32,000 nucleotides of DNA from Geobacter metallireducens GS-15 (GTDB lineage: Bacteria > Desulfobacterota > Desulfuromonadia > Geobacterales > Geobacteraceae): contig NC_007517.1 of assembly GCF_000012925.1 (NCBI RefSeq), positions 3,450,001-3,482,000 on the forward strand, in the 5' to 3' direction. The notes under the pieces were generated by a model. That model made no database searches and was not told the DNA's origin. It saw only the letters and a list, made by a program, of their open reading frames with translations. Each line of letters starts with the position of its first letter. Positions within the stretch are counted from its first letter, which is position 1. Below, piece by piece: positions 826-17,669 of this stretch. Made by a program: the position numbers and the translations under genes.

Positions 826-1105
826 CAGGACTCCCCGTTGATGGAGTTCTTGAGGACCGCACTGGGCTTGAATGTCAGCACTCGCCGGGACTGGATGGTG
901 AGCGCCTCGCCGGTCTGGGGATTGCGCCCCCGCCGGTCCGCTTTCCTTTTTACTTCGAAGTTGCCAAAACCGGTGATCTTTATCCTGTCTTCCCGCTCAA
1001 GGGTCTTCTTGATTTGCTCAAGGAGCACTTCGACCATCTCGTCCGCTTCTCTCCTTGAATAGCTCCCTTGGTGCTCACCAGTTCTGCAATCTCTTCTTTT
1101 GTCAT
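825..1105 (-). pseudogene. IHF/HU-family DNA-binding protein with an apparent 1-nt frameshift (or sequencing error) near codon 15
   Basis: An ATG at 1105 opens 'MTKEEIAELVSTKG', a typical IHF N-terminus, but that frame stops after about 38 codons. The rest, '[67 protein letters not shown]', is in another frame (track ORF 825..1037). The span is 281 nt, not a multiple of 3. The switch point maps to the C3/G3 run at 1065-1067. The two parts align colinearly with the intact paralogue at 1422..1715. Confidence 0.55.
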
Positions 1106-1421
1106 GGGGTTACGCTTCCTCCCATTGCTTATCGTTTTTTAATCGCGGGAATTTACCACAAATTCATCGGGCAGAGGAAGCTTTCTGCGCAACACACCAT
1201 TGGCGTAACCGGTTGCGCTGATAGGATGTTAATCGGCATGGAACTTTGACCCACTTTGAGGGGTAATCGGCGTCCAAGAGTGACCCACCACTTAACAGGC
1301 TATCTTGTTGATATTGCGATTTTATTTATGTTGTTACCAGGGTCAACCTTGCTTGCCGATGGCGGGTCAATCCACGATGCCGATTAACAATCCACTACCA
1401 ATTCATGGAGAGGTCCGGGAG

Positions 1422-1715
1422 ATGACGAAAGCCGATTTAGCCGACAAAATTCAGGAAAGGATCTCTTGCCAGAAGAAGGAAGCCGTTGAATTGGTGGAAC
1501 TCGTCATGGAATCGCTCAAGGATGCCATTGCGACCGAAGGACTTGTGAAGATCAGCGGTTTTGGAAATTTTGTCGTTCGGCAGAAGACGGATAGAGCCGG
1601 AAGGAACCCGCAGACCGGGGAGACAATTACCATTTCATCTCGGAAGGTTCTGACGTTCAAACCAAGCGTGATCTTGAAAAATCGGATAAATTCCAGCTTG
1701 ATGTCAAGTGACTGA
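1422..1715 (+). CDS. IHF/HU-family DNA-binding protein (IHF-alpha-like), island-borne paralogue
   Basis: An internal ATG at 1422 is preceded by GGAG/GGGAG (1407-1421). The product 'MTKADLADKIQERISCQKKEAVELVELV...[37 protein letters not shown]' carries the GFGxF and R-x-GRNPxTGE signature. The 39 upstream codons of the track ORF (1305..) look non-coding. Confidence 0.85.
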   Translation: MTKADLADKIQERISCQKKEAVELVELVMESLKDAIATEGLVKISGFGNFVVRQKTDRAGRNPQTGETITISSRKVLTFKPSVILKNRINSSLMSSD

Positions 1716-1720
1716 TAGCA

Positions 1721-4702
1721 TTAGTCTCGTTGAACAAAGAACGGGGAAAGGTTTATCATTGCTTCCCGTGCCTTCATAATATCAGTCCCAACCTTCCGTG
1801 AAAGAATTTCAACAAGGTCTTCTTGATTCGGTTGACCGAGTACCATCCTATAAAGAAGACGCTGCTGCTTCAACCATTCTAATCGCTGGTGTTCCTCGCT
1901 AAGAGGAACACTGAAGATCCATCTTCTTGATTGAGCACCATTGCAAACCCACCAGGGTGACATTCCTGATTTATCGCTGAGAGTATCGTGCGCAAGACGC
2001 TCAAGCGTTTCCCACGGACTCCCAGAATTAGTCTTCCCGTAGATATCTACTTTAGATGCAATCGCCTGCCGAATACATAGTCCACCAAACCTTTGAATAC
2101 GACCCTCCCGCTGTTCCAAGTCAACAGGGTTCCTCGGAAGATCCCAATGAACCACAGTGTCGCACCAAAGGTGGAAATCCAGACCTTCCTGACCTACGGA
2201 CGTTGTTACTAAGACGTGAGGCCAGAATGGCGAATTAAAAGCCTTTTGAAGATCCTCAGTCCGCAACTGAGCTTCACCACCCTCTTGGAGGGCACCCTCC
2301 TTCATATCAATAAACGGCAGAGCAGCGTGGCAGCGCAAATTAAATGACGTTTCTCCGCTTGCAGCAGGAGCAGTTAACCTGAAAGATCCTGTTCGCAGCC
2401 TGAGAGCAGTCCGAAGCGCCTTTAAAAGATCTGATCCCTCGGCACCTCGCGTCTTCCGCAATATCCAGAAATGTTCGTCGAGAACGGCTTCAAGATTGCC
2501 ATCTTTCACCGCCTTACGTATTGCGTCCGGATAGGTATCATCTCTCGCTTCAAGTGCTGCAGCAAATACGGGGTGATCGAGGTATGACCTGAAGCCGTTC
2601 CATGACAGATCGAGTGTTTCGGCAAACCCTGATGCAGTTACCGCATCCGGCCAGTGTCTCTTCAAGGCACGCGCCAGAACAACCCCGGGCGATGAAAGAG
2701 CGTAATCTACAAGGTCTTCCAACTCTTTCGGGGTGACATGACCAACAGGTTTCCCTGCTTCATCCTCCCACTTCTTTACTGCGGCAGAAGAACCGGCCCC
2801 GAGAATGTCACGGCCTGCCGTCAGCGCTGCACGCCAGGCCGCTCCGATGAATCGCGCAGGTTTTGTATATTCAGCATCCAGGCGCGCAAGAAGTATCCAC
2901 GTTCGTCGCGCTTTTCCGCTTGATTCGACAGAAATTCCGAGATCCTTCAGTGCCTTTTTGATTTGGTCACGAACATTTTTCTTCAATCTGTCTGGGGCAC
3001 TCAATGTCACCAGAGGATCGATTTGAGAAAGAAAGATGGAGGGATGAAAGAGGCCAAGCAGTTGGGGCCGCTTCGGAGACGGTTGAAGAAGGCGCCTTTT
3101 GGAAACGCTTTCATAAACAACGTTAGTCCCACGCGCAGAAGCTACTTCCACGTCATAACTAAGTAAAGCAGCAACTGCCTGTGGAACGGCCCGGAAACGA
3201 CTGAACACCAACGCCTTGCCAGTCGTCTTTCCTTTCCATTTTCCTCGGAGGGGCCACCATGGGAATGATGGCGATACCCATGGCAAAGAGAGGGATTCCG
3301 GAGAAAGTCGTTGACGTAACGCGCGCATTTTTGGATGAGGGGGATCAAATGGCTTGAGTTTATCGCGAGATGATTTGCGGAACCAGGAAATGCCGCGTCG
3401 AGGTATGCATTTGGCATGGCGACGCGCAACGTAACGGATTGACATAGTCTGCATCGGGATTGGAATTGAGGACCAATAAGGAACCGCCCACGGATGGTGA
3501 CGCAGTTGGAAACAGTCGGCAAGATGTTTAAACGTCTTGATGTCTGCGCTGATCACTGACGAGGGAAGGTGTTCTGTTCGGAAATCATCCCAACCATCTG
3601 GATGCGCCCCCCTCTCTGTCCGAGCGACAATACACGAAAGAAGTGACTCAATTTCTATTTTTGCGACAGCTGCTTCAGATGAGGTAGGCGTACCCTTTCG
3701 AATTTCTTTTTCCAACACCCCAAAAGATTTCTGGCACCTGCCCAGACGAACTCCGCAATCATCAACATTTCCCCACAGAAATTTCAGAAGGCTGAGAAAT
3801 TCCGTATGGTGAGCGCTGCCTTCCGACTCTTCCCAACGACGGGAATACATCCTGTAGGGAGTTGCAGACAACAGCAGCAAACCAGGCCGACAAGAAGGGT
3901 CATCACCTCTCAGGACATTGATAACCCGTTTTTCTGCATTGTCGAGATCCGGCGCCAGAAGATCCCGAAAGCGTTGGAACTCGTCAAAAATTACCAGGTC
4001 GGGTGTTAATGTCCTTATTGCACATGCCGCTAGAGCATTTCGGAGGTGTGCTACAAAATCGAGTGCCTTTTTCGATTGAATTTCCAGGTTCTGAACGACG
4101 GACTGGCCTTTTCCAATGTCGAACTCCTCGCGAACAGATCGGATAAAGGACTTCAGCAGTGTGTCCGTAACTTTACTACGTTGCGTATAGACCGCAGCGC
4201 CCCAGGATCTTGAAGCTGAGCGCCGAAACACCTTTTCATCAACCAATTCAAGAAGCTCTGGCCACGCTGACTCTATAAGCGCAAAAATCAACGCCCGTTC
4301 TTCACATCGACCAGCACTTTTTCGTTTGCCACTTCTGAGAGGAATTGATGTATCCGGGGTGAGAGTGTAAATAGCAAGTTGTCTGTCCGAAGGCTTGACC
4401 GATGTCGCCATGAGGGTCAGACGATCCGTACGACTGGTGGCCGAATCTCTTCGATCATGCGGAATTACTTCCAGCAATTTGTTGCGATTCTGACGAGCTA
4501 CAGTAAGGTTACTGCAGACATAAAATACAACCAGCGGCCGAGTTTTTCCCTCCATCATCTTTTTAACAAGTGCCTGAGCAACAACAGTTTTCCCAAGGCC
4601 AACTTCATCGGCAACCAGAAACCGGCGTGATCCGTTTGGATCATGAAAGGCTTTCAGAATTCGAGCAACAGTTGCTTCCTGAAAAGGTTTCGGGTCGCTC
4701 AT
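1721..4702 (-). CDS. SNF2/SF2-family helicase-ATPase, last gene of the seven-gene defence operon
   Basis: 993 aa. Motif I is 'ADEVGLGKT' (about 4586-4600), motif II 'VIFDEFQRF', motif III 'LLLSATPY', and motifs V/VI 'LVTTSVGQEGLDF ... DLPRNPVDLEQREGRIQRFG'. The start lies 4 nt after the stop of the PLD gene. Confidence 0.85.
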   Translation of the reverse strand: MSDPKPFQEATVARILKAFHDPNGSRRFLVADEVGLGKTVVAQALVKKMMEGKTRPLVVFYVCSNLTVARQNRNKLLEVIPHDRRDSATSRTDRLTLMATSVKPSDRQLAIYTLTPDTSIPLRSGKRKSAGRCEERALIFALIESAWPELLELVDEKVFRRSASRSWGAAVYTQRSKVTDTLLKSFIRSVREEFDIGKGQSVVQNLEIQSKKALDFVAHLRNALAACAIRTLTPDLVIFDEFQRFRDLLAPDLDNAEKRVINVLRGDDPSCRPGLLLLSATPYRMYSRRWEESEGSAHHTEFLSLLKFLWGNVDDCGVRLGRCQKSFGVLEKEIRKGTPTSSEAAVAKIEIESLLSCIVARTERGAHPDGWDDFRTEHLPSSVISADIKTFKHLADCFQLRHHPWAVPYWSSIPIPMQTMSIRYVARRHAKCIPRRGISWFRKSSRDKLKPFDPPHPKMRALRQRLSPESLSLPWVSPSFPWWPLRGKWKGKTTGKALVFSRFRAVPQAVAALLSYDVEVASARGTNVVYESVSKRRLLQPSPKRPQLLGLFHPSIFLSQIDPLVTLSAPDRLKKNVRDQIKKALKDLGISVESSGKARRTWILLARLDAEYTKPARFIGAAWRAALTAGRDILGAGSSAAVKKWEDEAGKPVGHVTPKELEDLVDYALSSPGVVLARALKRHWPDAVTASGFAETLDLSWNGFRSYLDHPVFAAALEARDDTYPDAIRKAVKDGNLEAVLDEHFWILRKTRGAEGSDLLKALRTALRLRTGSFRLTAPAASGETSFNLRCHAALPFIDMKEGALQEGGEAQLRTEDLQKAFNSPFWPHVLVTTSVGQEGLDFHLWCDTVVHWDLPRNPVDLEQREGRIQRFGGLCIRQAIASKVDIYGKTNSGSPWETLERLAHDTLSDKSGMSPWWVCNGAQSRRWIFSVPLSEEHQRLEWLKQQRLLYRMVLGQPNQEDLVEILSRKVGTDIMKAREAMINLSPFFVQRD

Positions 4703-4706
4703 GATA

Positions 4707-6482
4707 TCAAACCAGCCCCTGTGTAATCATCTTCCATAATTCCTGAAATTTCTCAATTTCCGCCAGCTCCTCTGGGGTAGCATCGGTTTCATGTTGTTCA
4801 AAAGCCTTCAGAAAGGAGGTAACGCGTAGGTTTATATCGGCAAGCGTTTTTCGGTTTCTGGTCCACGCTCGAAGAATATCTTCAAGAGATGGCGCAATTA
4901 ACTCCATTTGGAATGAAACTCCGGAATCAGTTGAACCAGTTTTATCCGAAGTCCAGTCACCACCGCCATCACTCCCAGCATTATCGAGGAGAAGACTTCT
5001 CAGCCACTGAAGAAACATTCTTGGCCCAAGGTATGAAGCAAAGGCAAGCCGATCCCGTTCTTCACCAAGTGGAGGATTAACAGGAACTCGCTGGCACCAT
5101 TCCTGGGATTTTTCATTCAATGACAGGCGTATATGAATGAATTCACTATCACGCGGTCTCGGGACCAGGGGAAGAATAAGCGATGAAGCCCCCCTTGGCC
5201 ATGTATGTAATGCCTCTCCGAGAATGCCAACTTCCAGTTCGATCGCTGGCTTATGTGGATGAGGCGGGACCTTTGCGACAAGTTCATTTCTATCCGCATG
5301 AATTTGCCGCTGAACATCCCAGATTGCAGCAACCTCATTTCGAGCGTCCGCCAAATCTTTCTCGGTAGGATCGTCTGGATCGATGACCGGGGGCATGGAC
5401 GAATCAAACTCTTGAGATGAATCTGCAAAAGTGCGTAAACCTTTATAAACGGTCTCGTCCACGGTGAGTTCAGCTAATACCTCGTAATTCTCACTCCAAC
5501 CTCTTGTAGTCGCATTTGCGCTCCCAACCCACAAAGTGCGCCCCAAAGAATGCTTAACGGACAATATTTTCGCATGCAGTCCACGGGAAACATCTTCATC
5601 TGATTCCATAGCCTCGTCAAACTCAGGATGCGGTTCATCGGTAAGGGCCTCATCCAGGTACAACATTTCGGCATATGAAGAGAGTGGTTTCTTCGCTTGA
5701 GCTAGAAGTTTCGCCAGTGCAGTACCCGTTGAGAGTATTGTTCGATGAGTTTTTTCGTCTGCCCCCCAGCTTCCGAACTTTCGTACCGTGTTAGCATCCA
5801 AAAAAGGACTCACCAATAAGAGCTCGGATACACCTTTCGGTTCGGATGGGATATCGCGAAGTTCACCGGGGCAAAACAACTTGACATCTTTAACAGAAGT
5901 CCCTGCCGGCGCGTCCCATTGTACACCAGCGACCTTTAAGCGTATTATTTCAGGGAGTTCTGCGAATTCGGCGAGCTTCTTGACAAGTGGAGGTATGCCA
6001 GGAACTATGGTTCCCCGCTGGCCAGGGGTTCCAGTAAGGAGAATTCCCGTATCCCACGAAATATCTTGAGTCAGATTCCGGCTTCCCAACCAAAGCCGCC
6101 ATACCAGTCGACCATCGGCATCATTCCGATAACTGACGACTGTTGTTTTCGGATGCCACGATCTTTTTCTTTCATCAGCAGGAACCTCGCGAATGAATTG
6201 ATCACAAATGCCAATAATTCGGGAGGTCTTTCGTGGAAGGGAAACCCTTCCTCTCTGCACAACAAATCGGACACGTCGTCTCAGCATTTCGCAAGCATCA
6301 GCAAGATCCATCTTTGTGCCTGAACCACGATCATCATCCAGGCCAGCAAATGCCAGAAGTGCGGCAACTACAGCAACAAGATCGGCAGAGTAGGTAGCAA
6401 CTACTGCATACTCCACTCTCCAGCCGGGATCAGGTCTGATTGCATCTAGGTATGGCAAGCTGTCCCAATTTTGCCTGGTCAT
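4707..6482 (-). CDS. PLD-superfamily protein with two HKD motifs (single-chain nuclease-type PLD)
   Basis: The motifs are 'WHPKTTVVSYRNDADGRLVWRLWLGSRNLT' (about 6075-6155) and 'LHAKILSVKHSLGRTLWVGSANAT' (about 5514-5576). The track ORF starts at a TTG at 6527. The ATG at 6482 gives a classic ATGA overlap with the stop of the upstream ORF (6479-6481), so it is preferred. Confidence 0.8.
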   Translation of the reverse strand: MTRQNWDSLPYLDAIRPDPGWRVEYAVVATYSADLVAVVAALLAFAGLDDDRGSGTKMDLADACEMLRRRVRFVVQRGRVSLPRKTSRIIGICDQFIREVPADERKRSWHPKTTVVSYRNDADGRLVWRLWLGSRNLTQDISWDTGILLTGTPGQRGTIVPGIPPLVKKLAEFAELPEIIRLKVAGVQWDAPAGTSVKDVKLFCPGELRDIPSEPKGVSELLLVSPFLDANTVRKFGSWGADEKTHRTILSTGTALAKLLAQAKKPLSSYAEMLYLDEALTDEPHPEFDEAMESDEDVSRGLHAKILSVKHSLGRTLWVGSANATTRGWSENYEVLAELTVDETVYKGLRTFADSSQEFDSSMPPVIDPDDPTEKDLADARNEVAAIWDVQRQIHADRNELVAKVPPHPHKPAIELEVGILGEALHTWPRGASSLILPLVPRPRDSEFIHIRLSLNEKSQEWCQRVPVNPPLGEERDRLAFASYLGPRMFLQWLRSLLLDNAGSDGGGDWTSDKTGSTDSGVSFQMELIAPSLEDILRAWTRNRKTLADINLRVTSFLKAFEQHETDATPEELAEIEKFQELWKMITQGLV

Positions 6483-7696
6483 GATGCACTTCTTAAATCC
6501 GACAGAATCCTTCGGACGTTGTACCAACGGTATGAAAGCGGTTCGGCGAGAGTATTGTCTTCAATTCCCCACTCCGCTCTACGTTTCTTGGCCGCAGGCG
6601 TTGAAGGTAATCTTGACCTAGTGCCCTTACGACGTATTTCAGCCTTTTGATAAACCTCCAGAAGATCCAAATAATTGTGCCCTCCCTTATTCAGCCACAA
6701 TTGGGTCTCGCGAAGAAGTGTGGTGAATTGTGGTGGAATACCCGGGATATCTTGCTCAACGGAGCTAATATCAAGATTTTTCGCAGGAGTTATGTACTGA
6801 GGGATAGTCTTGAGAATTTGTTTCCGGTGGTGACTTGGCGTTTCATTTCCATCACGTTCTCGTAATTCTTCTACAAGTGCCGAATAGATCGCACGGCCAA
6901 TGGCAGCGAGTGCGGAAGCTCGTCCAGCTCGTCTTAGCGCTGCACGATCATCAGTATCAGCAATAGCCATGACCGTACGATCCCAAGGGGATTGAATTTC
7001 TTCCACCGGCAGGGCTCGCTCAACCAGTGATGATAGCAATGACGTTTTGTCTGGGGTTCCGGGCCTGGTAACAGCACTCAAATGTCGCCGTAGAAACGCA
7101 GCCTCGTCAGGCTGTATATCAAACGTGAGAGAAGCGCTCTTATCCGTCCACTCTTTTGGTGGTCTTGGAATGCTTGAAAATAACTCCAATCCTTCTTCGG
7201 TAGGTTCGCCATCGTCATCTACAAGTTGAGGAACCATAGTGCGCTTCACCAACATTCGATTAACAACCGCCCTTCCAGGAATAGTGCCCGACATTGTCGG
7301 GCGAAGAATCCCCCATGTCCCCAGCGCTGTCCAGTAAACCATAGAAGCAGGCTGAGAAGTCGGACCGGGGTAAGACCTCCCCCCGATAACCCCATCTTGA
7401 CCGGTTCTCTTTAAACGTCCTGCGAGGCTGATCTCCATACGGGAAATGGCACGTTCCGGTGTTTCGCTCAGGTTTCTATTCCGTGCTTCTTCGTAAAGCC
7501 ATGGAACAAAGAGGATGTATCTTAGACGTGTTTGGAGAACTGAAGTCCCAGGGAAAAAACGGTTCGCATATCCCTGGTGAAGTGCGAGGAACCCGACTTC
7601 GTCTCGTACCCCCTGCTCATCGTTACGCAGTTTCGCCTCGGCCCGCCTCAAAGCATCTCGAGATAGCACCGTCCAACCTAATGCTGGCTCCAACAT
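6479..7696 (-). CDS. Hypothetical 405-aa protein, first gene of the helicase/PLD trio, with no catalytic motif recognised
   Basis: A long uninterrupted ORF. Its ATG lies 5 nt downstream of a perfect AGGAGG within the 11-nt spacer after jetD. The stop overlaps the PLD start (ATGA). The N-terminus contains 'FFPGTSVLQTRLRYILFVPW', and the C-terminus is basic. Confidence 0.7.
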   Translation of the reverse strand: MLEPALGWTVLSRDALRRAEAKLRNDEQGVRDEVGFLALHQGYANRFFPGTSVLQTRLRYILFVPWLYEEARNRNLSETPERAISRMEISLAGRLKRTGQDGVIGGRSYPGPTSQPASMVYWTALGTWGILRPTMSGTIPGRAVVNRMLVKRTMVPQLVDDDGEPTEEGLELFSSIPRPPKEWTDKSASLTFDIQPDEAAFLRRHLSAVTRPGTPDKTSLLSSLVERALPVEEIQSPWDRTVMAIADTDDRAALRRAGRASALAAIGRAIYSALVEELRERDGNETPSHHRKQILKTIPQYITPAKNLDISSVEQDIPGIPPQFTTLLRETQLWLNKGGHNYLDLLEVYQKAEIRRKGTRSRLPSTPAAKKRRAEWGIEDNTLAEPLSYRWYNVRRILSDLRSAS

Positions 7697-7698
7697 GC

Positions 7699-7704
7699 CC
7701 TCCT
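7699..7704 (-). promoter_or_regulatory. Shine-Dalgarno AGGAGG for the 405-aa ORF, inside the 11-nt jetD/ORF405 spacer
   Basis: The minus strand reads TGA-TATAGGAGGGC-ATG across 7710..7694. Confidence 0.6.
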
Positions 7705-7707
7705 ATA

Positions 7708-8913
7708 TCATTGGGTTTCTACAGCCGGCGTGAAAGGATTAACATTTTCCTGTTCTAGTGTCTTTGGCGGGTCTGTCGAAATGATAGCAGCCGCCAATAA
7801 AGCGATAGCCGGATATTTCTCAGCCGTCCGTTTGACTTCGTCCACCCGCAGGCTGGGTTTTGGCAGACCGCACGAGGCAAGGAGATCAACAGTCATTAAA
7901 TGAGGTTGCAAGGTCCGACGTAATAACCCTTGTACGTAGACAAATATTTTCAGTCCGCCCTCGTCAATATCCCCCCAATGGAAAAAAGGCATTCCAGATG
8001 GTAGTGAGACATCAAGCATCCGAAGAAAGTCAGCAAGACCTGGGGAGGGGAAGCCGGCTGTATAAAGAACAAGCCCGTTATCTCGAATCTCGGCGGCATA
8101 ACGATTGAAGCTTGCAAGATTTTCTACAGTCAGAACGTACTCTGGCAACTTATCGGCCGAAACTCCCCGAATAGCTTGAGGTGGCAATCCCACGAAAGGC
8201 CGAATGCCTTCGCAGTCGAGGTGACGGTCAGAAAGCTTCAAAACAACCGGCCCGCTAAGCAATAATGGAGGAGGAAATCTGACCAGCCCAAGCGTTTCTA
8301 ACAGCTCTTCGCCCGTCAGCTCTGTCGGATGGTATTTTTTCCAGACTGACGTAAATCGTGCCAGCATACCCTCCATAGCCTTGGAGTCCCCGAACTCGCG
8401 AGTACTGAACGTCCGCAGATCGAGATTGAGGTGACGGCCGGCGACAACCGCCTCCAATGCCCGGACCATCAGTCGGGCTGACGCGGTATCCCCCGGAGAC
8501 ATGCCAGCGGCCGACTGGTTTCGGCTCCACTTGCCGAGAAGGTCCTCAACCCATTCATTTATCCAAGTTTCTCGCCCGCTGAGCGCCGTTTCCAGTATGG
8601 AGCGGGCATCATCTGCCTGCTTGGCAGCCAGCGGCATCCCCAGATAATTGGCTAAGCCAGGACCATCTGTCAGGGTGATTCGTTTCAGAATGTGGCTTTC
8701 ATACCCTCTCCCCCATTCGAGCGCCACTGTCCCTGCCGAGGCTGCTTCAAGGAGCCCTGCGTGAATGGCCTCCTTAGCTTCAGGAAGAGACGCTTCAAAA
8801 TATTGTGGGGCCCTGGCTTGAGTGATTGGCAGTCGAACCAATCGGGAACGGTCGGGATTAGCCTGCCAGGCATCGAGGAGTTTCCTAAGGAGTTGACGGC
8901 TAGACTGGTTCAT
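7708..8913 (-). CDS. jetD: Wadjet JetD (MksG-like, Toprim-containing nuclease subunit)
   Basis: 401 aa. The C-terminal Toprim-like motifs are 'LTVENLASF' (acidic E) and 'FHWGDIDEGGLKIF' (DxD). It is the fourth gene after jetABC and overlaps the jetC stop by 14 nt. Confidence 0.8.
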   Translation of the reverse strand: MNQSSRQLLRKLLDAWQANPDRSRLVRLPITQARAPQYFEASLPEAKEAIHAGLLEAASAGTVALEWGRGYESHILKRITLTDGPGLANYLGMPLAAKQADDARSILETALSGRETWINEWVEDLLGKWSRNQSAAGMSPGDTASARLMVRALEAVVAGRHLNLDLRTFSTREFGDSKAMEGMLARFTSVWKKYHPTELTGEELLETLGLVRFPPPLLLSGPVVLKLSDRHLDCEGIRPFVGLPPQAIRGVSADKLPEYVLTVENLASFNRYAAEIRDNGLVLYTAGFPSPGLADFLRMLDVSLPSGMPFFHWGDIDEGGLKIFVYVQGLLRRTLQPHLMTVDLLASCGLPKPSLRVDEVKRTAEKYPAIALLAAAIISTDPPKTLEQENVNPFTPAVETQ

Positions 8914-11900
8914 GAAGGAACTCCGCCGTTCCCGAAGCCTTCCGGTAAGGGTTGTCGGTTCTCAGCATTGCCCGCATGGCAGGTTTGATGGAAATCACCT
9001 CCGTCTCCACCGTGCCGCCGTCTCGCGTTACCCAGACAATAGTGTCCATCACCTCGGCCATTGTGGCGAATTTTTCGTCGGGCGCAGCGACAATAAGCTG
9101 AAGCTGGATGTTCTTCAGAAACTCGATGCAGCTGTGGCAGGTTGCGACACTGAGCTTCGAGAATGCCTCATCGAAAACTGCCAAGCTCATGCCACCGTGA
9201 TGTTTACCGTATTCTTCCTTGAGACGGTAGGCCGCTGCCAGTGATGCGCCGATAGCAACATAGAACGGGGTCTGGTTTTCGCCACCGGAACCCTTCTGGA
9301 TACGATGTTCGAGGTCGGATGTTGGGGTCCCCTCCGTATCACACATCTCCACATCAAACACCAGAAAGTTCCGGTAGTCCTGCAGCCTCTCCGCGGCCTT
9401 GGGATCCTGCAAAGCGGTGGTAATATCTTCCAATGCCTTGCGGTGCGGGCTATTGGAATCTGCAACAGGATCAAACAGTCCGCCCACTTCACGTGACGCC
9501 GGGCTATTGCAGGCCTTGGCAAAATCAATGATATGCTTAAATTCTGGGTTGGAGCTGGAACGAAACTTGTAGATTTCGCCATGGAAAGGATGCTTCTCCA
9601 GCGTCTTGTTAAGCTGGGTGATCGACCCTCTTACGGCCTCGACCTTGCCTATCAGGCGGCCTACAAACTTGGAGCGGAAGGTGTCCTCAGCTTCCTGGAG
9701 TGCTCTGGCCGATTTTTCGCGGTATTCGGCCAGAGTGGTTTCGACCAGGTGTTTTTTCTTCCGTCGGATAGTGACGGCGTACTCTTCGAAATGCTCTGGT
9801 CGGGATTCTTCGCCCTCTTCCAGAGCGAAGCGGAGATAATACTCCGTGTACTCCTTGATCATTCGAGTATTGTTTTCTTCGATTGTTTTTAACGCTGAAC
9901 CTATCTCCTTTTCAGCCCTTTCACAGATCGCCGCAAAATCCCCGGCGTTCTGCTCGCGCCACCGGTCAAGGGTATCGGCTGCCTTCGCAGGATCAAGCAG
10001 CGGATTCCCACGCTTCTCTTCCAAGACAACTTGCAGAGCGTCCATCTGAGCGTCAAGAGCCTTCAATTTGTCATCGTTTTGTGCGTACTCTTTTTCAGCT
10101 TGAAGGCGCTTTTCATCCAGATCCTTGAGACTTTTCTTTATTCCTTCTGCCTTGTCCTCAAGCTTCTTGATTTCATCTCTGAGTTTCTGCTCCCGGGCAT
10201 CAGAAGCCAAGGCTGCAAGTTTTTCCTGCATCTCCTGGATGGCTTTCTCAGAAGCTGTGCGCTGCTCTACGAGAGCGGACAATGAAATAACGGCATCGCC
10301 CGAGAACTGCCGCTTGCAATCTTCCAGCAGAACTTTCAGACTGCCGAGATTCTCCTTTTCTCCTACTACCCCCGCCTGTTTTGTCGACAGCTCGTTCAAA
10401 TCACGTTGATAAGCAACCCGCAACCCTTCTCGGGAACCTCTCCCCAAGATTGGCTGTACGTTCTTCAGCTCTGATACTGTACCACCGGAACTCAACATCC
10501 CATCGGCAGTTGCGGCCCGGTCGTGGTGAAGCAGGTCCTTCTCGGTATCGACGCAGACGATATTCCCGAGACGGCGATTGATAAACGCCCTCGCATGCAC
10601 ATCATCGGTGTTGAGGCAATCGGCTAGAGTGCCCTGCTGTTTGGAGGCCTTCCAGCGGTCGGTCTGGGTTGTATTGATGATATGACAGCCGGGAAACTCT
10701 TGCCTCCCCTCATGGCGATAGAGGTGAACTGCCTTGCGGGCCTGCTCAGGAAGCACTACCAGGGCCTCGCGGATATTGCCGAGAATGCTTTCAATGGTGC
10801 CGCGCCACGTCTCGTCGGCAACATCCACCAGATCGCACAATGGCTTGGATTCAATGCCATGTTTCTTGAAAAACTGAATCAGATTCCGAGTGTTTGGTTG
10901 AAGCGGGGCTTTACCGTGTTGTAGCTGCTTGAGTGCTTCAACGAGATTTTTCAGCCGCTTCTCCAAGTCCTTATGATCCGCACAGAAATCATCATAGCGG
11001 CTGCTCAGTTCCGGTAAAGAGCGCTCAACTGCCACCAGCAGCAATTCAAGACAGATGTCAACCTCGGAAGGATTTGACGGCCAGACCGCGGTGCTTATCA
11101 TGTCGTCACCCGGCATCAGTTTGACTATATCGGAAATGGCCACGGCCAGAGAATCATTGACCGGCACATCCTTAAGTTTTTCAAAGCGCTGCAGCAGCCT
11201 GCGGATCTCGGTAATCCTCGCCTTCACATCTCCTTCGCGCTGCCTTGCCTGATCACTTTCTAATTGCAGGCGATCCCGCTGGACTTGGACATCACAGAGC
11301 TTCAACTCCCCACGTTTCTCACCGAGTTCCTCTTGAACCTTTGCCTGCTGGTCCTCAAGAACCGTCTTGTCCTTACCCATATGCTCGCGGGCCTCTTCAA
11401 GATCGGCCAACGCGCCCCGCAAGGGGTCGGCGCTTCCCTCAATCTGCTCGATACGGGCATTCAACGAGACATACTCGGCCATCACATGTTGGGCGCGAGC
11501 ATTTTCCACCTTCTCGCAGCAAACTTCGAGGCGAGTCAAATCAGCGACCCGCCGACTAACCGATTCGGTCTTCTCCGCCATGTCACGATAATTTTTCAAG
11601 GCGCTCTGCAGCTCCTTGATCTGCAGGTCATCACGATCGAGCATGTAGCGGCGGATGAACTCGGTAGGATCGGAGATCTTCTCCAGGCGGAACGCTGCTT
11701 GGAGAGCCTTGAGAACGGTCTTGTCATTGTTGGGTGAACCTGGGTGTTCACTCAGGCAGCCGTAGAGATCCTGGGTGAATTTTCCCGGCTCGTGGTGAAA
11801 CCGGGTGGCGTGGCACCTTTTCGCCAAGCGCTCCTTGACGCGCGCCCAGGGCAGGACAATCGTGCTGTCGCCTTTGCCCTGTTCCAGGAACAGGTCCTTG

Positions 11901-12322
11901 TGCCCAACCAGGCCGGGGCAAATGAAATACCCTTCCACCTTTTCTGCCATGTCTGCCATGCAAGCATAAATGCCAAGCCCGACACAGGTGGTTTCCCCGG
12001 TCTCGACATCATGGAAGTTCAGGGCCAGATAGCAATTCGCTTTGTCTCGCGGCTTGATCTTCGTGGCAAGTTCCGGTTTTTTCGGGTCCGACATGACCCC
12101 AAGGACGTATTCCCAGAGTTTGCGGGAGGATTGTTCATTGCTCCCCCGATTTAGGACCAGGAGCCGCTTGTTTGCCCCGGTCAGCACAGTCTGGATGGCG
12201 TCAAGCAAGGCCGATTTGCCAGCGCCATTATCGCCAATGAAGGCTGTATTGCCAACGATTGGGATTTCTACGGCTTCAAGGCGGAACCATTGAATGAGAA
12301 CGGCTTTAATCAATGTCTTCAT
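8900..12322 (-). CDS. jetC: Wadjet JetC (MksB-like SMC-family ATPase)
   Basis: 1140 aa. The N-terminal Walker A is 'IGDNGAGKSALLDAI'. A very long E/K/L/Q-rich coiled-coil occupies the middle. The C-terminus has the signature 'GSGGENQ' and Walker B 'LAVFDEAFSKL'. ATGA overlap with jetB. Confidence 0.85.
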   Translation of the reverse strand: MKTLIKAVLIQWFRLEAVEIPIVGNTAFIGDNGAGKSALLDAIQTVLTGANKRLLVLNRGSNEQSSRKLWEYVLGVMSDPKKPELATKIKPRDKANCYLALNFHDVETGETTCVGLGIYACMADMAEKVEGYFICPGLVGHKDLFLEQGKGDSTIVLPWARVKERLAKRCHATRFHHEPGKFTQDLYGCLSEHPGSPNNDKTVLKALQAAFRLEKISDPTEFIRRYMLDRDDLQIKELQSALKNYRDMAEKTESVSRRVADLTRLEVCCEKVENARAQHVMAEYVSLNARIEQIEGSADPLRGALADLEEAREHMGKDKTVLEDQQAKVQEELGEKRGELKLCDVQVQRDRLQLESDQARQREGDVKARITEIRRLLQRFEKLKDVPVNDSLAVAISDIVKLMPGDDMISTAVWPSNPSEVDICLELLLVAVERSLPELSSRYDDFCADHKDLEKRLKNLVEALKQLQHGKAPLQPNTRNLIQFFKKHGIESKPLCDLVDVADETWRGTIESILGNIREALVVLPEQARKAVHLYRHEGRQEFPGCHIINTTQTDRWKASKQQGTLADCLNTDDVHARAFINRRLGNIVCVDTEKDLLHHDRAATADGMLSSGGTVSELKNVQPILGRGSREGLRVAYQRDLNELSTKQAGVVGEKENLGSLKVLLEDCKRQFSGDAVISLSALVEQRTASEKAIQEMQEKLAALASDAREQKLRDEIKKLEDKAEGIKKSLKDLDEKRLQAEKEYAQNDDKLKALDAQMDALQVVLEEKRGNPLLDPAKAADTLDRWREQNAGDFAAICERAEKEIGSALKTIEENNTRMIKEYTEYYLRFALEEGEESRPEHFEEYAVTIRRKKKHLVETTLAEYREKSARALQEAEDTFRSKFVGRLIGKVEAVRGSITQLNKTLEKHPFHGEIYKFRSSSNPEFKHIIDFAKACNSPASREVGGLFDPVADSNSPHRKALEDITTALQDPKAAERLQDYRNFLVFDVEMCDTEGTPTSDLEHRIQKGSGGENQTPFYVAIGASLAAAYRLKEEYGKHHGGMSLAVFDEAFSKLSVATCHSCIEFLKNIQLQLIVAAPDEKFATMAEVMDTIVWVTRDGGTVETEVISIKPAMRAMLRTDNPYRKASGTAEFLHEPV

Positions 12323-12939
12323 TGTCCCCCCCCTGCTTCATCGGTTCCGTTTTCCTCGCCTTCTCCTCCTTTGGTGTATTCTTCCAAAGCCTGCAAGAAA
12401 CCGTGCGTTACTATGTCACGGATCGATGGGCGAATGCGGAAGCGGATCGCCTTGTCCTCGTCTTCGTCGATCTCTAAAAGCCCTTGGCGGGAGAAGGTTC
12501 TAAGAATTTCGCGCAGCCTCACCAAGCCTGGCCGCTTTCTGCCGGTGTGCGCAACAAAGGTGTCCAGCATGACCTCGCTGTCGGTAAAGACCTGCGAAAA
12601 CTCTCCCACTCTGCACTCCTGGGCGGCTCTCTCGTAGATGACCCGCAGGACGAGGAGGAACAGAGAGTGTTCAGTGTCCAGGCCAACGGTCAGATGAGAT
12701 TCCCGGGGGACCACGCCAACATACCCTGCCGTCCGGTCGCATATCAATTCGAGATTCAGGGCATCGAACAGGTTTCGGTAATAATCCTCGGCGTCGAGGA
12801 TCTGGTGAAAAGAACGCTGGTCCCTGCTCTTGTCTCCGAAAAGGAACTGACGATCCAGGGCAATTGATGCTGCGCGACGTAAATCCTCTGCGGCCAGGTT
12901 TTCATCCTTATCAAGCATGCGACGGAGCTCGTGAAGCAT
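12319..12939 (-). CDS. jetB: Wadjet JetB (MksE-like KITE subunit)
   Basis: An acidic 206-aa protein in the canonical position between jetA and jetC. The call rests mainly on size, synteny and operon coupling. Confidence 0.7.
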   Translation of the reverse strand: MLHELRRMLDKDENLAAEDLRRAASIALDRQFLFGDKSRDQRSFHQILDAEDYYRNLFDALNLELICDRTAGYVGVVPRESHLTVGLDTEHSLFLLVLRVIYERAAQECRVGEFSQVFTDSEVMLDTFVAHTGRKRPGLVRLREILRTFSRQGLLEIDEDEDKAIRFRIRPSIRDIVTHGFLQALEEYTKGGEGEENGTDEAGGGQ

Positions 12940-12942
12940 CCC

Positions 12943-14367
12943 CTACCCCTTCCTTTCGACGATAAAATCGCTGCATTCCAACAGTGGTGTATCAAGCCGA
13001 TCCCCTGTGCGGCGAATGTTGAACAGAGGCATGTTCGGGACCGGTTTGCCCTTCATCTGGTTGAGAAAAGGGACAAAGGCAAATGCCACCAACTCATCGA
13101 CCGATTCGATCTTGAAATCCTTAGCCGCGAACGTGGCGCGCTCCCCCATCTGCCGGTCGATGAACGCAACCACTTTGGCAGGTGACATGACACGCCGCTG
13201 CAGGTAATCCTGGATAAGCCGCAGGCGCTCTTTGACTTCTGTACTGAGTTCCTGCTCCCTGGCCAGCTCGATGAATTGAGGTTGTCGGCGTCTCTGTGGT
13301 TTGCGGATGCTGCGATGACTCAACAGCGCATGAGATATCCAGCGAGGAGGTTGGGGTAAAGCGGGGAGCTCTCCATCGGGCTGCTCCAGCGATCTCCTGC
13401 CGAGCTCTTCCAGCAGCTTGATTCCTCGGTTGGTTAGATCGGGAACGTTGCGATCCATGTAACGGACCATTTCCGCCACCCGTGATTCCAGGCGCATGCG
13501 GTACAAATCGATGGCATCGAGTCGCCGATCAACTGAGCGGAACACCCTGGCGATAAAATGAAGATCGCTTATCACCTTTTCCCGCGCTGCGTCTGGCGCC
13601 AGGTTCTTGTCTTCCTGGTAGACCTTGATCAGCGCCGTCATGATTGAGTCTATATGTTCGATCTGAATCAGGAGGTTCAGGACATTGGCGCGATGACGAA
13701 AGGGGTTGTTTTCCGCCTGGAGGGACTTGTAATCGGAGATCAGCAGATTCTCGACAAAATCATCGAAAAAAGTGGACAGGGCAAGTTTAGGGTTGTGCTG
13801 ACGGGTGATGATGTCCTGAAAGCCGCGGAGGCCGGAGAAGATATTTTGCAAGTGACGGGTGAAGTCACGCGCCGCTCTAACAACCTCAATGAATGCGCGG
13901 GCATTGTCTTCAGGGTGATTGGCAATCGCCTGGAGTTGTAGATGGATAGAGGCGATGGTGCTGCCGTAGTTCTTCTTTTCTGCATGGGCGACACCTTCAA
14001 GGGCCTCCAAGAGAAGACTGGCGTGAGGTGGCATGATGACGTTGACGTGATAGCCGTCTTCTTCCTCTTCGAGCCAGCCTGTCACGACGAGGCGCTTGTA
14101 GATGTACCTGGCGGCCGGCCCTGGCGCATTGCTGATATCCTCCTCCGCGTCCCCTTCCTCATCGACGATTTGCAGCAGGCGGCCTTTGCGTTCCAGCAGT
14201 TCTTCTATCTCACGGACGACATGACCGCGTCGTGGAAAAACCGCCTCGTTGGTTATATCCTCATCCGAGAAATACCTGAAAAGGAAGAGAAGGATTTCCT
14301 CAAAGAAATATCTGTTTGCGCCCGCGAGAGGCTTGAAGATTTCGTCGGGCAGCTTGTTGAAAAGCAT
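12943..14367 (-). CDS. jetA: Wadjet JetA (MksF-like kleisin subunit)
   Basis: 474-aa first gene of the operon, with its stop 3 nt before the jetB start. The call rests on size and order matching jetA-B-C-D, and no catalytic motif is expected. Confidence 0.7.
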   Translation of the reverse strand: MLFNKLPDEIFKPLAGANRYFFEEILLFLFRYFSDEDITNEAVFPRRGHVVREIEELLERKGRLLQIVDEEGDAEEDISNAPGPAARYIYKRLVVTGWLEEEEDGYHVNVIMPPHASLLLEALEGVAHAEKKNYGSTIASIHLQLQAIANHPEDNARAFIEVVRAARDFTRHLQNIFSGLRGFQDIITRQHNPKLALSTFFDDFVENLLISDYKSLQAENNPFRHRANVLNLLIQIEHIDSIMTALIKVYQEDKNLAPDAAREKVISDLHFIARVFRSVDRRLDAIDLYRMRLESRVAEMVRYMDRNVPDLTNRGIKLLEELGRRSLEQPDGELPALPQPPRWISHALLSHRSIRKPQRRRQPQFIELAREQELSTEVKERLRLIQDYLQRRVMSPAKVVAFIDRQMGERATFAAKDFKIESVDELVAFAFVPFLNQMKGKPVPNMPLFNIRRTGDRLDTPLLECSDFIVERKG

Positions 14368-14631
14368 GAGGCGCTCCAGCAGTGTAGCTGTTTTCAGTCC
14401 AATCCATCCAAGTGCAAAGTTGATTGCAGTTGCCGGCCATGATCAATGCATTTTCTCACACAAGTGCGACAGGATACGTCTCAAACTCTATTTACTGGAA
14501 CTTCCTATTTTGTGACATGCAACTTAGCCACCTAAGGCTACCAGATCACAACCCGGGCCTGAGATGACACTTCTCATAAGACTACCAATCGAAAATCAGG
14601 AAGCTCTGTCAAGTATGTCTAAGGGGGTTGG

Positions 14632-14946
14632 TCAAGGGTGTTGGATGACGCGGAACTGTTCCTCGCTATCCGCCAGCTTCCGCTCAAGGATTCCCAACTC
14701 TTCACGAGTATAAATGCTCTCCCCTCGTGCGATCTCGCGCTTGAGGCGTTTGATCCGGCCGGGAAGACTGTCCGTCTGGAGGCGGCTGTCACCATGCAGC
14801 AGCGTCATGTCCTTCACCGCCGGGTTGCGGGATGAAGTCGACACATCAAATTCCCCTACACCACGCTTATGCGAATCATTGTCAGAGCATCCAGCAGCGA
14901 GAAGAAGAAGCATGGTGGCAACTACTGGCGATGTCTTGGCGTTCAC
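14632..14946 (-). CDS. Small putative lipoprotein
   Basis: 104 aa with a GTG start. The signal peptide has the lipobox 'LLLLAAGC'. Function unknown. Confidence 0.5.
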   Translation of the reverse strand: MNAKTSPVVATMLLLLAAGCSDNDSHKRGVGEFDVSTSSRNPAVKDMTLLHGDSRLQTDSLPGRIKRLKREIARGESIYTREELGILERKLADSEEQFRVIQHP

Positions 14947-15156
14947 GTTCTCTTGCTCTTGGCTGGGTCAAGAAGTTCTTTCAGTTCCTCAATCTCTGCC
15001 CTCATCACGGATTTTTTTCCATTTCCTTCCATAGCATAATTGTCTTCGCATGTTTTCGATACTGAGCGCCTAATTAGCGAGCAGCCATACTTCAGGGACC
15101 GCAACAACAATAAGCAACTCGTGGATCAGAGTTGCAATGGGCGAATGTCCAGATGA

Positions 15157-15613
15157 TTAATGCTTATTAGTGACCGTTCCCATTCTCGCTAGCTTTAGAG
15201 CCTGTTCGAACGTGACAGACATACCGCCATTTCTCTTCGCGAAAGCCTTGGCATTCTGCTTACTGACAAAGGCCAACTGCTCCACATTAGACATAAGCCC
15301 CTTCTGGTTACTGCCAACAATCCATGCCGCCGATTTTGCTTCTAACAGCTTCCCCGAATTGAAATCAGCCACCTTGATCGATATGGCCTGCTTACCAGTT
15401 CTCTCGTCCATCGCCATCGCAGCACAATGCAAACTGCAGGTCCCAACGGTAGTCCCATCAGTATAAACGATTAGCATTCGGCTATGGGCAAAACTTGTCC
15501 GGTTCATCCCGCACATCAGGCAAGACGCCGGGGCCTCTCACCCTCTCTAGTGCGAAGGCTGGGGAATCTACAAAAACAAGGCAAAGCATGATGCCCAGCA
15601 TAAATTTGTCCAT
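15157..15613 (-). pseudogene. NosL-like (CxxCGM motif) periplasmic protein, separated from its signal peptide by a frameshift
   Basis: The body ORF 15157..15516 has 'SCLMCGMN...YTDG...CSLHC' and a C-terminal 'AKAFAKRNGGMSVTFEQA' typical of NosL-family proteins. A signal-peptide-like ORF 'MDKFMLGIMLCLVFVDSPAFA' starts at 15613 in a different frame and stops shortly after. A TGA at 15538-15540 blocks the body frame. The shift must lie around the G4/C4 run at 15530-15533. Confidence 0.45.
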
Positions 15614-15630
15614 GATTTTCACCTACTAAC

Positions 15631-15900
15631 TCATCTGCCCCTGAACCGCTCTTGGAATAGCTTCAATAGGATAGCCATGAGAAGATTCTTGATGTTGACG
15701 CCGCACCTGGCCAAGGTGGCGTTGATTTTGTCGCCTTCTTCGCCCTTGAGGTAGTTGCGGCCAATCCGGTGGTCTTGCTTTACTTTGCCGATGATCGGCT
15801 CGATACTGCTGCGCCTTCGACGCCATTTCTAGGCGCTAGCCTTCACACTCCTCTTTTTCTTGTTGGCTAGATAGATCTCAATGGTGCTGAGTATTGCCGG
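15631..15900 (-). mobile_element. IS5-family (DDE_Tnp_1) transposase C-terminal remnant, degenerate
   Basis: A frame different from the track ORF reads 'AILSTIEIYLANKKKRSVKASA*KWRRRRSSIEPIIGKVKQDHRIGRNYLKGEEGDKINATLARCGVNIKNLLMAILL', which is the conserved 'R(R)SxIEPxIGxxKxxxRxxRNxLKGxxGDxxN' C-terminus. There is an in-frame TAG at 15829-15831. No N-terminal part and no inverted repeats were found. Confidence 0.6.
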
Positions 15901-15910
15901 TGTCCCCTTT

Positions 15911-17617
15911 TCAACCGAATGCGCAAACTGCGATGATCTCGATCAACCTGTTGCGCCAAGCCGACAGGTGTTCAACGCTATCCTTATGTGGATGATTCTT
16001 TCTTTCCAAGACGATGCCTTTACGCCTCAAGCTTTTTTGGGTCTCGTCGAATAGCTCCCTTTCCACGTAATCTCGTACAACTTCGTCGGCCAGGTCCCTA
16101 GTGACCACAGTAGATGAAATCAAAACGTACGTAGAACATCCCGATGGTAAGCCCGACTGATCAATCTCTACCAAGCAAACGTATTTTTCTCGATACCTGA
16201 ACCAGACATAAGCACATTCCCGTCGCTTCTCAGCTGTATTACCATATGTCTCCCGTAAAGACGGCTTACGAGAACCTCTCTGTCTTTGCCAGACAGGCTG
16301 CCTTGACAATGAAATACGAGTCACCGCTGCAATGCTGCTGTCCTCATTGACCAGCCTATACCCTTTCAGCCCTCTGACCAACCGCACAAAATCGTCCAAA
16401 GGCATTGAGTAGTCATCGGGCTCGGCAGCATCACCATCGTCTCGCTCCACCTTCGCCTTCGCAATGGCAATATCGTCCATGGGATAGTCTTGCTGGGTAC
16501 TCAGCTCAACATCCTTATCGCCAGGCATTAACTTGGGAACCTTTCCCTCATCCTTGCGTGGTGTAGGAATGTAGTCCTTGTTCTCCCTTATGGCACGTGC
16601 ATTACAGTTGGCGATGCTCACATGGTTCTGGAGGATCCTTCGGATGTAACGGCTGGAAGGATTGCTGGGTGCAAGGTTCTTCCCTGACTTTGCTGTCAAA
16701 GCCGGGAAAGTTTCCGTATCCCCATCAGGATCATCAATTTCATACGTTCGTCGATCAATAGTGATGCTGTCGAAAGGAAAGAGGCTGTCTTCTTCCAATA
16801 CCTGGAACACAACAAAAGTCTTGCCACCTTCAGGATTGGTGGCAAGATGCCCTCTCGCCTTGATTGTTATTTCCTGGTTGACTGGAAAATCCACCTTGAG
16901 GCGTTGAAATTGACCACTATCGGCGTTAACGCTATTCCGAACCATTCTCATGCGACTACCCGCGAATCCATTAGCCAGAAATCGGACTATGCTCTTTGCG
17001 TCAGAATCCGCAGCGCCAGGTTTCATGGTGATCTTGGCGTGTAGGGTACTATCATCCAATGAATAGTCTTCGTGGAGGCGCTTTAGGTTTTGAGAAAAGA
17101 CCGCCTCACGCAAGGAGGTGGATTTGAAATAGTAGACGCCTGCGAGAACTGCGCAAGGAATGACGATCTTCATATCGTCACAGTGAAATACCAGACACTG
17201 CTGGTTCTTGCAGATGGCCGAGTTATTTTTGGTAAAATCGCTCTGATAGCGCGTGCTGGTCAACGAAAGATCGTATTCTAAGTCAGTTAACGCGTCCTGG
17301 ATCCGTACGATTTTATTATGCTCGGAGGAGTTGACAGTAAATTTACGGACGGTACCTAGCGCTGGTTCTTTGATCAGTTTCCTGCCCTTGGCGAAATAGG
17401 AGCCTACAGTGCAATACGAAAGGAGCTCAGGAGGGATGGTGTCGGCGAGATAATAACCGGTCTTGACGTTTTTAAACAGTAGCCTGATGAGGCAACGGGA
17501 TGAACTTACGTTTAGGTTGAGGATCCAGACGAGTTGAAAGCGATTTCTGGGATCCTCGGACCTCATCTTTGGCAGGATGTATATTTTGTCGAGGTCAGCC
17601 GGCACGTTACCCCGCAC
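15911..17617 (-). CDS. Hypothetical 551-568-aa protein immediately inside the transposon-like end
   Basis: A long ORF in low-G+C DNA. The track start is a GTG at 17617 and the first ATG is at 17566. No catalytic motif was recognised. The acidic central linker contains '[14 protein letters not shown]', and the C-terminal region contains '[11 protein letters not shown]...STYVLISS'. The 3' end abuts the IS5 remnant. Confidence 0.65.
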
Positions 17618-17623
17618 CGGAGT

Positions 17624-17669
17624 TGTAGCAATAACTATTGAAATGTAGCGTTAACTTCTGAAAATGACA
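17624..17669 (-). repeat. Transposon-end-like terminus: 5'-TGT end plus two tandem ~22-bp direct repeats
   Basis: Read inward on the minus strand, the end is TGTCATTTTCAGAAGTTAACGCTACA (17669..17644), followed by CATTTCAATAGTTATTGCTACA (17645..17624). The two copies agree at about 17 of 22 positions. comM homology stops at about 17670. Confidence 0.45.

Follow-up and report, generated by a model that had tools for sequence, protein, structure and literature searches.

The DNA analysed here is a window of 32,000 nt from the genome of Geobacter metallireducens GS-15 (NC_007517.1, positions 3,450,001-3,482,000), to which the coordinates below refer unless another locus is named. On its minus strand lies a block of seven genes, four of Wadjet type (jetABCD) followed at once by three of Azaca type (zacABC). 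The Wadjet part comprises jetA (12943-14367, 474 aa; PADLOC JetA1, 3.5e-187; Pfam JetA, 1.9e-85), jetB (12319-12939, 206 aa; PADLOC JetB1, 2.2e-45; Pfam DUF4194/MksE), jetC (8900-12322, 1140 aa; PADLOC JetC1, E=0), which encodes an ATPase resembling structural maintenance of chromosomes (SMC) proteins, and jetD (7708-8913, 401 aa; PADLOC JetD1, 2.5e-91; Pfam JetD_C), which encodes a Toprim-type nuclease subunit. All four type I profiles were matched over their full length, with the genes in the jetABCD order: residues 1-1138 of JetC correspond to positions 1-1142 of the 1146 in its profile (with Pfam AAA_29 and SbcC_Walker_B), and residues 6-400 of JetD correspond to positions 9-392 of 395. 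E264 and N265 of JetD and the motif HWGDIDEGG are invariant in 24 homologues. Judged by these matches, jetABCD is a canonical type I Wadjet, a system already known.

Behind jetD follow zacA (6479-7696, also listed as ORF405, 405 aa), zacB (4707-6482, with its ATG at 6482, 591 aa) and zacC (1721-4702, 993 aa), contiguous and in the same direction. In our map of open reading frames (ORFs), these agree with the three minus-strand genes that a preliminary description of the window had placed there. The junctions it reported are likewise all present: a spacer of 11 nt with AGGAGG, an overlap of 4 nt (ATGA) and a gap of 4 nt. The TGA of jetD is separated from the ATG of zacA by TATAGGAGGGC (7697-7707, 11 nt, minus strand), the seam of the two cassettes; zacA and zacB overlap by 4 nt (ATGA), and zacB and zacC are joined as TGA-TATC-ATG. 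Within the Wadjet part the spacings are +3 nt (jetA/jetB), -4 nt (jetB/jetC) and -14 nt (jetC/jetD), so that the 11 nt at the seam are the largest gap from jetA to the stop codon of zacC. The start of zacA may need a small correction. Only 2 nt separate GGAGGG from the ATG at 7696, and the related zacA genes of three loci (L081, L175 and L176) share as their start a conserved TTG, equivalent to 7693 in the window, with a TAA in front of it in L081. The true start is therefore likely to be the TTG at 7693, which would give a ZacA of 404 aa and a spacer of 14 nt behind jetD.

The trio was identified by comparison with PADLOC and Pfam profiles. Residues 4-404 of ZacA match positions 3-393 of the 396 in the ZacA profile (3.4e-88), and Pfam DUF6361 is matched above its cutoff (3.3e-23); residues 1-588 of ZacB match positions 1-579 of 586 (3.2e-117); residues 1-988 of ZacC match positions 10-1017 of 1019 (3e-271). 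Because the three proteins are matched over their full length and the genes stand in the canonical A-B-C order, the trio is, at the level of sequence, an ordinary and complete copy of Azaca (ZacABC), a known system. The preliminary description had noted a likeness to Azaca, and this proved to be full membership, with matches from end to end. Two of its reservations fell away: the first protein, for which it could name no family, is a DUF6361/ZacA protein throughout, and the order unknown-PLD-helicase (PLD, phospholipase D), which had looked like a departure, is the ZacA-ZacB-ZacC order of the surveyed loci. A reading in which the trio is unknown and its gene order unusual was accordingly ruled out. 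Azaca reportedly goes back to Millman et al. 2022; the word itself is absent from the text of the Millman preprint. The system has been described as a helicase, a PLD nuclease and a DUF6361 protein (bioRxiv 10.1101/2024.10.26.620412; PMC10952713).

ZacB has the features of a single-chain, double-HKD nuclease of the PLD family. Its first HKD motif, H110-x-K112 ... G133-S134-R135-N136, is encoded at 6075-6155 and its second, H303-A-K305 ... G320-S321-x-N323, at 5514-5576 (both minus strand), the latter being covered by Pfam PLDc_2 at residues 300-352. Both are at least 95% conserved in 69 homologues, and the histidine codons singled out beforehand (6153-6155 and 5574-5576) are those of H110 and H303. 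Among PDB sequences the lone match of ZacB was the PLD restriction enzyme 2c1l, which is not significant (E=0.51) and fits a PLD nuclease. ZacA was predicted by AlphaFold2 to be mostly helical (predicted local distance difference test score 84, predicted template-modelling score 0.81). A Foldseek search with this model found no fold match in the PDB (best E=2.4), and a ZacA profile compared with PDB sequences gave only short, irrelevant matches to phycobilisome linkers.

ZacC is predicted to be a helicase/ATPase of superfamily 2 (SF2; Pfam ResIII and Helicase_C). The Walker A motif G35-L-G-K38-T39 (4586-4600, minus strand) is conserved in 60 homologues, and in the same set motifs I (GLGKT, 35-39), II (DEFQ, 240-243), III (SAT, 279-281), V and VI (QREGR, 864-868) are at least 95% conserved. 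ZacC had been called an SNF2 helicase. The complete set of SF2 motifs was borne out, but the SNF2 N-terminal domain was not found: at E<=0.01 the Pfam matches were Helicase_C, ResIII, DEAD and AAA_22 only. The C-terminal RecA-like lobe (about residues 806-880) aligns with DrmD of DISARM, DpdE of Dpd and RapA, and motif III (LLLSATPY) is RapA-like; all of these alignments are only partial, with scores far short of the family cutoffs. On these alignments ZacC is placed in a family of its own.

To define the seam, we compared the block with its nearest relatives at the DNA level. Homology to the nearest Azaca cassettes (L081, L175 and L176) extends from the GGAG of the ribosome-binding site to the stop codon of zacC. 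Homology to the nearest Wadjet (L085) extends from about 17 nt before the ATG of jetA to within about 4 nt of the stop codon of jetD. From the limits of the two cassettes, the crossover is therefore placed inside CAATGATATAGGAGGG. The GC content at third codon positions (GC3) was 0.62-0.65 in jetABC, 0.52 in jetD, 0.41-0.45 in zacABC and 0.77-0.81 in the flanking host genes. The block joins two foreign cassettes whose compositional histories differ, and its seam is unusually clean: compared with its nearest relatives, each cassette is trimmed exactly to the stretch between ribosome-binding site and stop codon. The ATGA overlap of zacA and zacB and the 4-nt gap behind zacB had also been taken as evidence that the trio is welded to Wadjet; because both occur in the Azaca locus L081 as well, they are internal features of Azaca, not signs of fusion, and were rejected as such evidence. 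Only the 11-nt joint between jetD and zacA is particular to the G. metallireducens genome.

We then asked how often the two systems lie together. Employing an alignment of ZacA, we retrieved 80 Azaca loci from distinct GTDB species (ZacA 39-51% identical) and searched their 10-kb flanks for JetA-D matches at E<=1e-5. Wherever the contig allowed, the order zacA-zacB-zacC was constant, and none of the 80 loci had a jet gene within 10 kb. For the reverse search, 90 jetD loci were assembled (a metagenome scan supplied 80 and the nearest relatives the rest), 67 of which had at least 600 nt of sequence after jetD; tblastn found zac genes in none of the 90. Since the tblastn queries picked up JetD down to 29% identity, the sensitivity of the search was adequate.

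The closest relatives agree with the surveys. The nearest ZacA (85% identity, L081/L082) is encoded behind a type I restriction-modification/ATPase cluster with a 138-nt gap, and the next (81%, L175) follows after 287 nt an ORF unrelated to JetD. Behind the nearest Wadjet (JetD 91%, L085), a convergent GGDEF gene follows after about 550 nt, and another (JetD 71%, L092) stands alone; in a third (JetD 76%, L089/L090) jetD is overlapped by a gene for a 324-aa HNH nuclease. Within the species the seven-gene arrangement is stable: 23 assemblies carry an identical ZacA in the same context. Among the lineages examined, the pairing of Wadjet and Azaca is specific to that of G. metallireducens. In the literature searched, Wadjet was not found mentioned with Geobacter in any paper, and the papers that name both Azaca and Wadjet do so only in lists belonging to system censuses.

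Azaca, by comparison, is habitually joined tightly to other genes. In 41 of the 77 evaluable loci an ORF of 150 aa or more, read in the same direction, ends no more than 100 nt upstream of zacA, and in 8 of those 41 the gap is 20 nt or less. These upstream neighbours are mostly unrelated defence genes: BrxL (gap 3 nt, 1 locus), AbiEii (0 nt in L008; 3 loci), BrxC (18 nt, 2 loci), HipA (11 nt, 3 loci), a NERD-helicase (24 nt in L014; 2 loci), PDC-S01 (about 47 nt, 8 loci), prokaryotic Argonaute (pAgo; 1 locus) and a PbeA-like SF2 helicase of about 1200 aa (mostly 57-58 nt, 11 loci). Because Azaca usually sits in defence islands in this way, the 11-nt joint to jetD is no evidence of partnership. 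The novelty that the preliminary description had seen in a fusion to Wadjet thus becomes small, Azaca being joined equally tightly to many unrelated defence genes, and its piggy-backing on so many partners calls for caution in deducing functional coupling from tight operon structure.

A side observation concerns an alphaproteobacterial clade of Azaca. There, a helicase of 983-1233 aa (ResIII/Helicase_C/SWI2_SNF2), with weak PbeA-like PADLOC matches, ends 55-84 nt upstream of zacA; the loci with this helicase upstream are L057, L058, L064, L067, L069, L070, L072, L073, L076, L077, L079 and L080. The helicase gene may belong to a variant of Azaca as its conserved fourth gene, or the loci may represent one widely spread island.

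We consider it likely, with a probability of roughly 0.8, that the block consists of two complete, separately evolved and already known systems, Wadjet and Azaca, joined end to end in a low-GC island. An Azaca cassette running from its ribosome-binding site to its stop codon was recombined directly behind the stop codon of jetD. Any promoter region would have been lost in this way, and zacABC would be translated from transcripts reading through from jet. The two systems would act in parallel, Wadjet on plasmids and Azaca on phage, and would not form a single machine. The SMC-like JetABC would extrude DNA loops and license JetD to cut small circular DNA such as plasmids, whereas a ZacA-ZacB-ZacC complex would cleave phage DNA by means of the ZacC ATPase and the double-HKD ZacB. 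As an arrangement, this is a routine defence-island mosaic and not a new composite machine.

This scheme follows what has been reported for homologues. Plasmids and other small circular DNA are cut by Wadjet with JetABC as the loop extruder and JetD as the nuclease (PMC10889018; bioRxiv 10.1101/2022.10.04.510915). BmAzaca needs ZacA, ZacB and ZacC together with the Walker A motif of ZacC and the nuclease site; in vitro, DNA cleavage depends on this Walker A motif of BmZacC; and the system cleaves T4 DNA by preference, the protection that it gives against T4 exceeding 10^6-fold (bioRxiv 10.1101/2025.07.10.664194). The characterised Bacillus Azaca prefers T4 DNA with glucosyl-hydroxymethylcytosine. 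Residues matching the active sites of the characterised Wadjet and Azaca are all present in the window proteins. By analogy, we infer that ZacABC would confer phage resistance and JetABCD would restrict plasmids in G. metallireducens.

Several points weigh against this interpretation, and they concern in turn the independence of the two systems, their transcription and the element that carried them. The independence of the two systems is argued from their lack of co-occurrence and from studies of homologues in other hosts. Furthermore, in three other Wadjet lineages a gene is welded to jetD: the 324-aa nuclease gene of the L089 lineage, with an HNH_2 domain (L089:11194-12168, 4-nt overlap), which is followed by a 109-aa ORF and a gene with a LigD_N domain; a gene for an 884-aa protein with a C-terminal PD-(D/E)XK domain (L123:7300-9954, 4-nt overlap); and a gene for a 266-aa protein (L153:11147-11947, 3-nt gap), for which no family match was found. 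Given these cases, a functional reason for adding DNA-degrading modules behind jetD keeps some plausibility.

On such a view, ZacABC would be an accessory arm of Wadjet, and the operon fusion would reflect functional coupling: the ZacC motor and ZacB might degrade the plasmid that JetD has linearised, or Azaca might extend the range to DNA that JetD cannot cut. It is favoured by the genes abutting jetD elsewhere, by the fact that both systems act on DNA, and by the joint itself, which holds a ribosome-binding site only and no separate intergenic space for a promoter. We nevertheless regard such a composite system as decidedly improbable. The two surveys show zero co-occurrence, and the closest relatives of each module live apart. 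Azaca is just as tight behind BREX, AbiE, PDC-S01, pAgo and HipA genes, so that tightness is no sign of partnership; Wadjet and Azaca each work alone in heterologous hosts; and ZacA, ZacB and ZacC lack copy-specific features and match the general profiles from end to end. The preliminary description had offered both an independent module riding in the Wadjet transcript and an accessory arm processing DNA for JetABCD. The former is favoured here, and the latter fails on the co-occurrence that the description itself had proposed to survey, the link being absent from both sets of loci and from the closest relatives. A broader form of the same idea, that the 3' end of jetD serves type I Wadjet as a favoured docking site for DNA-degrading modules acting with it, is credited with just as little probability; if it were true, an appended module would destroy JetD-linearised DNA or cover forms that JetD cannot cut, in a modular "Wadjet-plus-finisher" architecture.

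The second point is how the block may be transcribed. The 264 nt upstream of jetA (14368-14631, minus strand in the ORF map) are the sole real intergenic space of the block and the presumed site of its promoter. This region has no homology to its counterparts in L085 or L089, and no consensus sigma-70 match was called in it. At the other end lies an IHF-alpha-like gene (integration host factor alpha; 1422-1715, plus strand; NCBIfam NF001401, 117.9 bits against a cutoff of 111), which is also a gene call in the short-read assembly L083 and which bounds the block. Since zacC and this gene converge with their stop codons 5 nt apart, transcripts of the jet-zac block would run antisense into it, and the same 5 nt account for the lack of a terminator between them. 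The seven genes are probably co-transcribed, as their spacing suggests. Because the cassette has lost its upstream region, whereas relatives have 138-287 nt upstream of zacA, zacABC would be expressed by read-through from the jet transcript, and one promoter would therefore drive an anti-plasmid and an anti-phage system together.

Against co-transcription stand its derivation from gene spacing only, the fact that no terminator was called after zacC, and two minus-strand sigma-70-like matches inside jetD (8148-8119 and 8673-8644), each of them weak (9 of 12 positions). The earlier statement that the block leaves no room for a promoter or terminator thus holds for the intergenic space, but a promoter within jetD is compatible with these weak matches. 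The two systems might accordingly be transcribed separately, with a promoter in the 3' part of jetD driving zacABC. Long operons often have internal promoters, and the two matches in jetD would be the obvious candidates. We rate this alternative as unlikely, since both matches are weak and the region-wide count of sigma-70-like matches is near the shuffled level (17 against 11.1 +/- 3.2 in shuffles, within about 2 standard deviations). Any promoter in jetD would also be fortuitous, because the 3' end of the gene is homologous to that of relatives without Azaca downstream, and a ribosome-binding site directly past the jetD stop codon suits a shared mRNA.

The block lies in a low-GC island (about 826-17606) with a GC content of about 0.50-0.54, compared with 0.60-0.62 in the flanks. 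The stretch 826-1720 (GC 0.50) holds the IHF-alpha-like gene, which may belong to the island. In the low-GC spacer just upstream of that gene we noted a 26-nt imperfect inverted repeat (1227-1252 and 1364-1389; 81% complementary, 111 nt between the arms), one arm of which begins TGTTAATCGG. The opposite edge of the island is marked by a 5' fragment of comM/yifB (17607-18533, minus strand; TIGR00368, 1.1e-107, profile positions 3-284 of 499), with a host-like GC3 of 0.80. Overlapping the broken comM by 11 nt is a gene for a 568-aa TnsE-like protein (15911-17617, minus strand). Downstream of it, between this gene and a small NosL-like ORF (15157-15516), lies the C-terminal remnant of a DDE transposase (15634-15825, minus strand; Pfam DDE_Tnp_1_6 positions 78-124 of 125, E=2.9e-4, below the gathering score). 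In the assembly L083 a contig ends near this remnant, at about window position 15746.

The 568-aa protein matched no Pfam, NCBIfam or PADLOC profile at E<=1e-3, and Pfam TnsE_C was reached only at E=0.19. Of its 42 homologues, most come from Geobacter and other Desulfuromonadales; P0241 (72% identity) is the closest. The homologue P0275 (L177) bears the UniRef name "TnsE C-terminal domain" and is encoded near TnsA/TnsB/TniB/TniQ genes with restriction-modification cargo. No tnsA, tnsB, tnsC or tniQ/tnsD was found in the island, the only ORFs of at least 200 aa in 826-17617 being the seven defence genes and the TnsE-like gene. Neither convincing terminal repeats at the island ends nor tRNA genes or Rfam matches to mark its boundaries were found. 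The 3' half of comM was not found either, a soft negative given that the query was an unverified E. coli YifB C-terminal sequence. The whole block was probably carried into comM by a Tn7-like element that has since decayed, a tentative reading that draws on one UniRef name, one neighbourhood and a non-significant Pfam match (E=0.19).

The decay of the island, with its broken comM, its transposase remnant and a TnsE-like gene lacking tnsABC, raises the question of whether Azaca is an inactive passenger, a promoterless remnant kept by hitch-hiking; the loss of its own upstream region would fit such a fate. We find this scarcely credible. The three ORFs are intact and full length against the profiles, every conserved catalytic residue is present, a strong ribosome-binding site has been kept, and many assemblies of G. 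metallireducens carry this sequence unchanged.

If two working systems indeed share one operon, G. metallireducens would express anti-plasmid and anti-phage defence together, which is of practical interest for its genetic tractability. The locus would also illustrate how defence islands are built from promoterless modules that use the transcription of an upstream operon. Beyond annotation its import is small, since both systems are named, have published homologue biochemistry and are found by standard profiles.

Compared with known systems, the upstream half of the block corresponds to type I Wadjet (JetABCD / MksBEFG / EptABCD), with the same four-gene order, top PADLOC matches of type I and intact Toprim-type motifs in JetD. 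It differs in that the G. metallireducens operon runs past jetD, whereas its nearest relatives (JetD 91% and 71%) end there, and the relative with 76% JetD identity has the HNH gene where G. metallireducens has zacA. The downstream half has the gene set and order of Azaca, both HKD motifs and all helicase motifs, and it shares with its relatives the 4-nt zacA/zacB overlap and the gap of a few nt between zacB and zacC. No difference was found in the proteins; the G. metallireducens copy differs in having no upstream region of its own and starting 11 nt past the jetD stop codon, and its host is a Geobacter, compared with Bacillus for the characterised system. As a whole, the arrangement resembles the stacking known from defence islands, such as modules in or behind BREX loci and the cargo of Tn7-like elements, which are likewise co-directional, minimally spaced, compositionally foreign and near transposon remnants. 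It departs from them in its carrier, which is without transposition genes, and in having Wadjet as the upstream partner, which was not seen elsewhere in the data searched.

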